Shown here one piece after another: positions 19,027 to 20,104 of a stretch of DNA of 64,000 nt (within the stretch, counting starts at the first letter, position 1; each line of letters starts with the position of its first letter). This DNA is from Escherichia coli (GTDB taxonomy: Bacteria > Pseudomonadota > Gammaproteobacteria > Enterobacterales > Enterobacteriaceae), in NCBI RefSeq assembly GCF_050320075.1, contig NZ_CP190018.1; one strand, written 5' to 3'. The notes under the pieces were generated by a model. The model was given only the letters and a program-made list of their open reading frames with translations. It ran no database searches and was not told the DNA's origin. A program made the position numbers and the translations under genes.

Positions 19027-20104
19027 TCACGGCAGGCGGTGGCGGGCTTGATAATAAGCCTGCCAGTGAGCTTCTTTATGTGTGGCGACACGCTGTTCGA
19101 AGTAACGGCGCAGACGCGCGCGATCTTCTTCGTTATCTTTAACGATGGTTCCGGCAATACAGTCCACCAGATCGGCTGGCTCACCTGCGCGATTCGCTAA
19201 AAACCAGGCGCGGACGCCCACTGCGTGGGCCACGTTCACGGCTTCAGCGGTGGATATAATTGCCGTCAGAGTATCCATTGACGTTTTCTTTTCGCCGTTG
19301 GCACGCAGATCGCGGAAGGTGCGGACCAGTAACTCCAGTACCGCGTCAGGCACTTTATGCGGAATACCGCTATGGGCCAGCAAACGCGCCGAAGCACTGG
19401 CGACCAGTTCCAGCTCCTGGGCGAAATCCATAATCGGAAAGACGGTTTCAAAATCGAAGCGACGCTTTAGCGCGGCACTCATCTCATTGACGCCGCGATC
19501 GCGGGTATTGGCAGTGGCAATAATATTAAAGCCTTCCCGCGCATAGAGCTGACTGGCTTCACCGGTGAGTTCCGGCACCGTCATCACCCTGTCAGAAAGC
19601 ATACCTAACAGACAGTCTTGTACTTCCAGCGGTGTACGCGTTATCTCTTCAAAACGGACGATTTTGCCGTCGCGCATTCCCTGGTAAAGCGGGGCAGGGA
19701 CCAGTGCTTCCGTAGACGGACCATGGTTGATAAGCAGGGCGTAGTTCCATTTGATCTTCAGTAGTAGATGCGCCGCCCTGGATGGTTAACCCGGCATCGC
19801 CGCTAATAGCGGTTGCCAGTAATTCAGACAGGAGAGATTTTGCGGTGCCCGGTTCCCCCACCAACATCAAACCGCGCCCGGTGGCAAGAGTGACTAACAT
19901 ACGTTCGACAGCGGAGGGACTAATCACCACTTTACGGCTAATATTTTGCGCGCTATCGCCAAGGATAAAAGCACGGGCCGCAGGCAAACTTAACTGCCAA
20001 CCGGGCGGGCAAGGTGCGTTATCATTTTGTTTTAATTTTGCCAGTTCATCGGCGTATAACACAGCAGCAGGCGGACGCTGCAGATGATTATTCTGCGGTG
20101 ACAT
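19027..20104 (-). pseudogene. yehL: MoxR-type AAA+ ATPase YehL with a frameshift between Walker A and Walker B regions
   Basis: N-terminal fragment (ORF 19649..20170, start MSPQNNH, Walker A GEPGTAKS) and C-terminal fragment (ORF 19027..19677, [15 protein letters not shown]) are in different frames. Span is 1078 nt, not a multiple of 3. Both frames are open only across 19649..19785. Confidence 0.75.

Follow-up and report, generated by a model that had tools for sequence, protein, structure and literature searches.

An 11-bp deletion in the MoxR-family ATPase gene yehL of Escherichia coli, and its place in a decayed yeh cluster

In the stretch of Escherichia coli chromosome analysed here (the window, 64,000 nucleotides), the gene yehL appears to carry its Walker A half and its Walker B half in two different reading frames. 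This raises the question of whether the gene is truly inactivated, whether an intact gene has been misread, or whether a working ATPase can still be made from the two frames. Of the seven MoxR subfamilies, one is named after YehL; K-12 has two MoxR proteins, YehL and RavA, of which RavA partners the vWA protein ViaA (PMC3893208). The features on which the answer depends are the following.

19027..20104, minus strand: yehL, a predicted pseudogene (MoxR-family AAA+ ATPase, YehL subfamily); 1078 nt, intact alleles 1089 nt
19649..20104, minus strand: truncated yehL frame from the native start; on translation 118 native and 33 out-of-frame residues, ending at TGA 19651..19649
19749..19750, minus strand: junction of an 11-bp deletion, from the alignment to the MS 115-1 and TG1 yehL genes
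19027..19677, minus strand: orphaned C-terminal yehL frame; IVRFEE with the remaining AAA_5 and lid region, without the P-loop

A deletion between Walker A and Walker B

The preliminary description had called the gene a MoxR-type ATPase, yehL, and this identification holds. In a profile search the intact YehL ortholog matches Pfam AAA_5 over residues 79–220 (E=2.6e-34), with a weak match to bpMoxR (E=0.002), and by tblastn both halves of the window gene are ~98% identical to intact YehL, so that an AAA_5/MoxR-type AAA+ core can be assigned to them through the ortholog. The locus is syntenic with that of K-12, with ~96% nucleotide identity to K-12/TG1 yehL, and a gene for a vWA-domain protein is nearby, the intact yehP (15608..16744). 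A single polypeptide with both Walker A and Walker B is not encoded by the window gene, which is a member of the MoxR/YehL subfamily by descent but is predicted not to be a functional one.

On the minus strand, the gene extends from an ATG at 20104 to a final TGA at 19029..19027, and the length of this span, 1078 nt, is not divisible by 3, as had been reported. The lesion was placed by aligning the gene to the intact yehL of MS 115-1 and of the K-12 derivative TG1, the check that the preliminary description had proposed. Against both alleles the window gene shows a single gap of 11 bases: the intact sequence reads GAAGATCAAA-TCAAGTACGGC-TGGAAC and the window GAAGATCAAA-TGGAAC. The junction lies at 19750|19749, and its placement can be shifted by one T, corresponding to a microhomology of 1 nt; an ATCAA-ATCAA direct repeat nearby does not bound the deletion. 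The sequence gatcaaatggaa, whose A-run was earlier named as the candidate site, was therefore the right place, to the base, since the junction lies inside it, but a one-base slip in the A-run is rejected by the alignment, which gives an 11-bp deletion with only the single T of microhomology. Intact alleles contain TCAAGTACGGC and have a continuous ORF of 362 codons.

Specifically, the deletion costs YehL the residues Ile119-Lys-Tyr-Gly122 and puts the following codons out of frame, with a stop 33 codons on. The break falls inside the AAA_5 domain, that is, in the ATPase core, and when aligned to midasin AAA domains the lost IKYG corresponds to the TD..L(I)G segment, which lies past Walker A and ahead of Walker B. 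The predicted product has 151 residues, 118 native and 33 aberrant (MELRPAYQ...RQNRPF). With intact YehL as the tblastn query, residues 1–120 map to 20104..19745 and residues 119–363 to 19761..19027 in the other frame.

The two motifs are separated in the manner that had been claimed for them. Walker A (GEPGTAKS, 19858..19835) lies in the frame of the start codon and the Walker-B-like IVRFEE (19662..19645) in the second, +1 frame, with the stop at 19651..19649 between motifs. The TAA at 19788..19786 is the nearest stop upstream in the C-terminal frame, which is open from 19785 onward and offers no start codon before the native Met147, at 19677. The statement that both frames are open only within 19649..19785 is borne out by these two stops.

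Distribution and chromosomal setting

To judge how widely the lesion occurs, a 101-base query centred on the junction was compared with complete E. coli genomes. It is found at ≥99% identity in 215 of them and at 95–99% in 5 more, which have a nearby SNP; the deletion is thus carried by 215–220 of 5,119 complete genomes, about 4%, and the earlier suggestion to look for the same lesion in related isolates has a clear answer. The intact version is represented by 4,901 genomes, MS 115-1 and TG1 among them, which align across the 11-bp gap, spanning 112 bases at 80–90% identity. A longer query of 1301 bp retrieves 219 genomes at ≥99% identity, approximately the number of junction carriers, so that among the complete genomes searched this particular allele is not represented in intact form; intact orthologs with the same nucleotide sequence had been named beforehand as an observation that would speak against the frameshift.

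Many laboratories, countries and hosts are represented among the carriers. Sanji, WCHEC005237, AR_0149, AR_0150, AR_0151, AR_0162, SCEC020007, 51008369SK1, AR435 and M217 belong to ST167 (PMC6392093). In the RefSeq record of M217 (NZ_AP019189.1) the yehL pseudogene, B7R44_RS09030, is identical to the window across yehL and is annotated 'AAA family ATPase, frameshifted'. From these comparisons we estimate a probability of about 95% that the deletion is genuine and yehL a true inherited pseudogene. The lesion is an already annotated, lineage-specific pseudogene and an instance of ordinary gene decay.

The window and the intact alleles (WP_000074859.1, e.g., in MS 115-1, and WP_001350535.1 in K-12) have the same locus and neighbours, with yehK upstream and yehM-yehP-yehQ downstream.

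16737..19016, minus strand: yehM (DUF5682), a pseudogene with an in-frame amber codon; 'internal stop' in RefSeq (M217)
18345..18347, minus strand: the yehM amber, TAG replacing Ser224 (TCG); 61-mer in 214 genomes
15608..16744, minus strand: yehP, the vWA-domain partner gene; intact ORF downstream of yehL and yehM
13611..15611, minus strand: yehQ, encoding a SWIM zinc-finger protein; intact ORF, the last gene of the yehLMPQ run
21061..24693, minus strand: first of three tandem DUF4132 genes, 1210 aa
24703..28497, minus strand: second DUF4132 gene, 1264 aa
28510..32307, minus strand: third DUF4132 gene, 1265 aa

The amber codon in yehM, which the preliminary description had missed, cuts YehM off after residue 223. 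A 61-mer containing this codon has exact matches in 214 genomes, and the yehL and yehM lesions therefore travel together. At the level of sequence, the yehLMPQ operon is doubly broken.

Some further features of this neighbourhood were recorded. The space between yehK and yehL holds a zorO-orzO type I toxin-antitoxin locus (20216..20291 on the minus strand and 20537..20626 on the plus strand), with an OrzO-P antitoxin RNA scoring 101 bits against Rfam RF02083, a 29-codon ORF, MDTLTQKLTVLIAVLELLVALLRLIDLLK, which we take to be ZorO, and divergent promoter-like sites at 20305–20355. K-12 is without this insert, and some strains are ~610 bp longer between yehK and yehL, possibly from a second zorO-orzO copy. 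The three tandem DUF4132 proteins are 31–61% identical to one another, the third gene has no counterpart at the K-12 locus, and yehI has many private amino-acid changes.

The chromosome around the cluster was compared with K-12 in 1-kb steps. The window is 99.9–100% identical to K-12 at 1..~7197 and ~58809..60340, and 91–99% identical in between. Against the ST167 strain M217 the window is 100% identical over about 7.4–32 kb (one mismatch), with the transition at 7.2–7.4 kb, and 94–98% identical in the K-12-like flanks, while from 32 to 58.8 kb the identity is variable, 96–99.9%. Within the 13.3-kb yeh cluster the two genomes differ by 1 mismatch and both have the yehM amber, but their chromosomal flanks differ, the window being K-12-like outside about 7.2–58.8 kb, where M217 is 95–98% identical. 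A 24.6-kb block with both lesions, identical to M217, is thus set between K-12-like flanks. The region ~7198..58808 has the appearance of a recombination mosaic, in which 32–58.8 kb shows a third, patchy pattern.

Not all carriers share the left recombination junction of the window. This possibility was considered and rejected: at ≥99% identity the junction is found in only 2 of 5,426 complete genomes, one of which is YZLc1-3, from chicken, at 100%. The yehL lesion thus occurs in more than one chromosomal background, at least two in the case of the block with both dead genes. The simplest reading, we infer, is that the dead yehL allele would also have been moved by homologous recombination.

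Three further features of the window lie outside the cluster. An STnc490 Hfq-binding sRNA and a TPP riboswitch upstream of thiM were identified with Rfam, and the end of a P2-like prophage occupies 60341..64000, beside the yegR/yegQ region; this prophage is not at the corresponding position in K-12/TG1 or in M217.

43353..43449, plus strand: TPP riboswitch upstream of thiM (Rfam, 72 bits)
51396..51519, plus strand: STnc490 Hfq-binding sRNA (Rfam, 144 bits)
60429..61442, minus strand: P2-like prophage integrase
61558..61857, minus strand: P2-like prophage repressor
61972..62247, plus strand: P2-like prophage Cox-like excisionase
63515..63739, plus strand: P2-like prophage DksA-like zinc-finger protein

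The intact yehL alleles also allow us to ask how the gene is constrained. Among them dN/dS is 0.02–0.05, indicating strong purifying selection, and in E. coli yehL is therefore a genuine gene. Six synonymous changes are private to the window allele, but just one amino-acid change (M287I) is, and from the nearest intact allele it is separated by 16 synonymous and 1 non-synonymous changes. On the count of private changes, the inactivation looks recent relative to the divergence of the alleles. [quoted passage not shown] Such silencing fits weak day-to-day selection on yehL and yehM.

An alternative to neutral decay is that the dead allele was itself favoured, or that it hitch-hiked with a favoured neighbour. 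The reason to raise it is that the multidrug-resistant ST167 lineage and a genome whose flanks resemble K-12 share the doubly broken block at 100% identity; as one example of such a non-neutral loss, YehLMPQ and the DUF4132 genes could form a costly conflict or quality-control system. We consider a non-neutral loss of YehLMPQ unlikely, and ordinary gene decay is the reading that we retain.

Can the two frames still yield an ATPase?

If the pieces carrying Walker A and Walker B/sensor were made separately and reassembled, the gene could be split and still functional. Both halves are still ~98% identical to intact YehL, and in the C-terminal frame translation could first begin at the native Met147, as this model would have it. 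However, it is the single α/β core of AAA_5 (residues 79–220) that is broken, and residues 119–146 would be missing from both pieces. The sole purine-rich stretch before the ATG at 19677, AGGGA, is ~1 nt from the start and hence too close for a Shine-Dalgarno sequence, and none of the other ~4,900 genomes shows a split of this kind. Reassembly of the two pieces is for these reasons very improbable.

A programmed +1 frameshift could in principle restore a full-length YehL, by a slip of tRNA-Phe on the four T's of CCG TTT TGA (19657..19649) into the native GAA GAG frame. The T-TTT-GA context at the yehL stop is indeed visible in the sequence, and the overlap 19785..19652 is the sole place where recoding could happen. 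However, even a recoded product would keep 33 aberrant residues in place of native 119–155, including the strand that leads into Walker B. Moreover, the four T's are no more than the native codon context of Arg-Phe-Glu, and intact MS 115-1 yehL has them too; the ~4,900 genomes with an uninterrupted yehL ORF show that the frameshift is derived and not conserved. Programmed frameshifts of the prfB, dnaX or IS type have a conserved slippery site and a stimulator, whereas the yehL frameshift is restricted to ~4% of genomes and no conserved recoding architecture is present at it. The downstream yehM is, in addition, independently knocked out. We assign this explanation a negligible probability, and both recoding and reassembly are rejected on sequence grounds.

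Finally, the possibility left by the preliminary description, an error of sequencing or assembly in a genome whose yehL is really intact, has next to no probability, given that the loss of 11 bp in non-repetitive sequence is atypical of homopolymer error, that the identical junction recurs in 215 complete genomes sequenced independently, from many hosts and by many laboratories, that a linked second lesion in yehM is common to 214 genomes, and that RefSeq flags the same frameshift.

Predicted consequences and related systems

Some effects of the lesion can be read directly from the sequence. With codons 119–122 gone and the frame shifted inside AAA_5 by the deletion at 19750|19749, translation from the native start gives 118 native residues, ending just past the Walker A P-loop, followed by 33 aberrant ones. 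The Walker B, sensor and lid regions are stranded in the other frame, without a P-loop or a usable ribosome-binding site. An active hexameric YehL ATPase should therefore not be able to form, and the earlier prediction that the ATPase is non-functional as encoded is supported by the frameshift together with the separation of the two Walker motifs. Since translation stops early, 620 nt short of where yehM begins, the downstream genes are probably expressed at a reduced level. Because yehL is cut inside the AAA+ core and YehM is truncated, we infer that the MoxR-vWA module YehL/YehM/YehP/YehQ would be functionally lost in this lineage. Some residual activity of YehP and YehQ is conceivable, since both ORFs are intact.

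The best known relative of this module in E. coli is RavA-ViaA, which likewise consists of a MoxR-family AAA+ ATPase encoded beside a vWA partner, and for which a role as a chaperone-like remodeller is proposed (PMC3893208). RavA belongs to a MoxR subfamily other than that of YehL and, unlike RavA-ViaA, the yeh cluster adds a DUF5682 protein (YehM), a SWIM protein (YehQ) and the tandem DUF4132 genes; its ATPase is also predicted to be dead here. In the literature library searched, we found no functional study of yehL, yehM, yehP or yehQ, or of DUF4132 or DUF5682; what is written on the yeh genes concerns H-NS silencing, a deletion in Shigella sonnei and the listing of MoxR subfamilies. We also considered whether the cluster is a known anti-phage defence system. 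This was rejected: the PADLOC defence models gave zero matches at E≤0.01 to YehL, YehM, YehP, YehQ, YehI and YehK, and NCBIfam gave only sub-threshold similarities for the yeh cluster proteins, to GvpN, MadB and cobaltochelatase.

The yeh genes have been inactivated elsewhere as well. In ETEC L4_E1441 (locus L007, 7094..8206) an IS421 element (IS4-like) splits yehL ~37 bases into the 101-bp junction query, and this insertion near the deletion site is an independent inactivation. Strain E6474 has a frameshift in yehM, and K-12/TG1 has a stop in yehQ and a DUF4132 pseudogene. These are different lesions in different lineages and thus separate events from those of the window. In Shigella sonnei, lineages 2 and 3 have a deletion of ~7 kb that includes yehL and yehM (PMC12795559).

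The lesion matters very little: it is already flagged in RefSeq and poses no new mechanistic question, and it adds one more example to the recurrent decay of the H-NS-silenced yeh cluster. It does indicate that a lineage of worldwide spread, carbapenem-resistant ST167 included, is without a working copy of one of the two E. coli MoxR ATPases and of its neighbour yehM, a loss that is relevant for studies of YehLMPQ in such strains and for core-gene counts.
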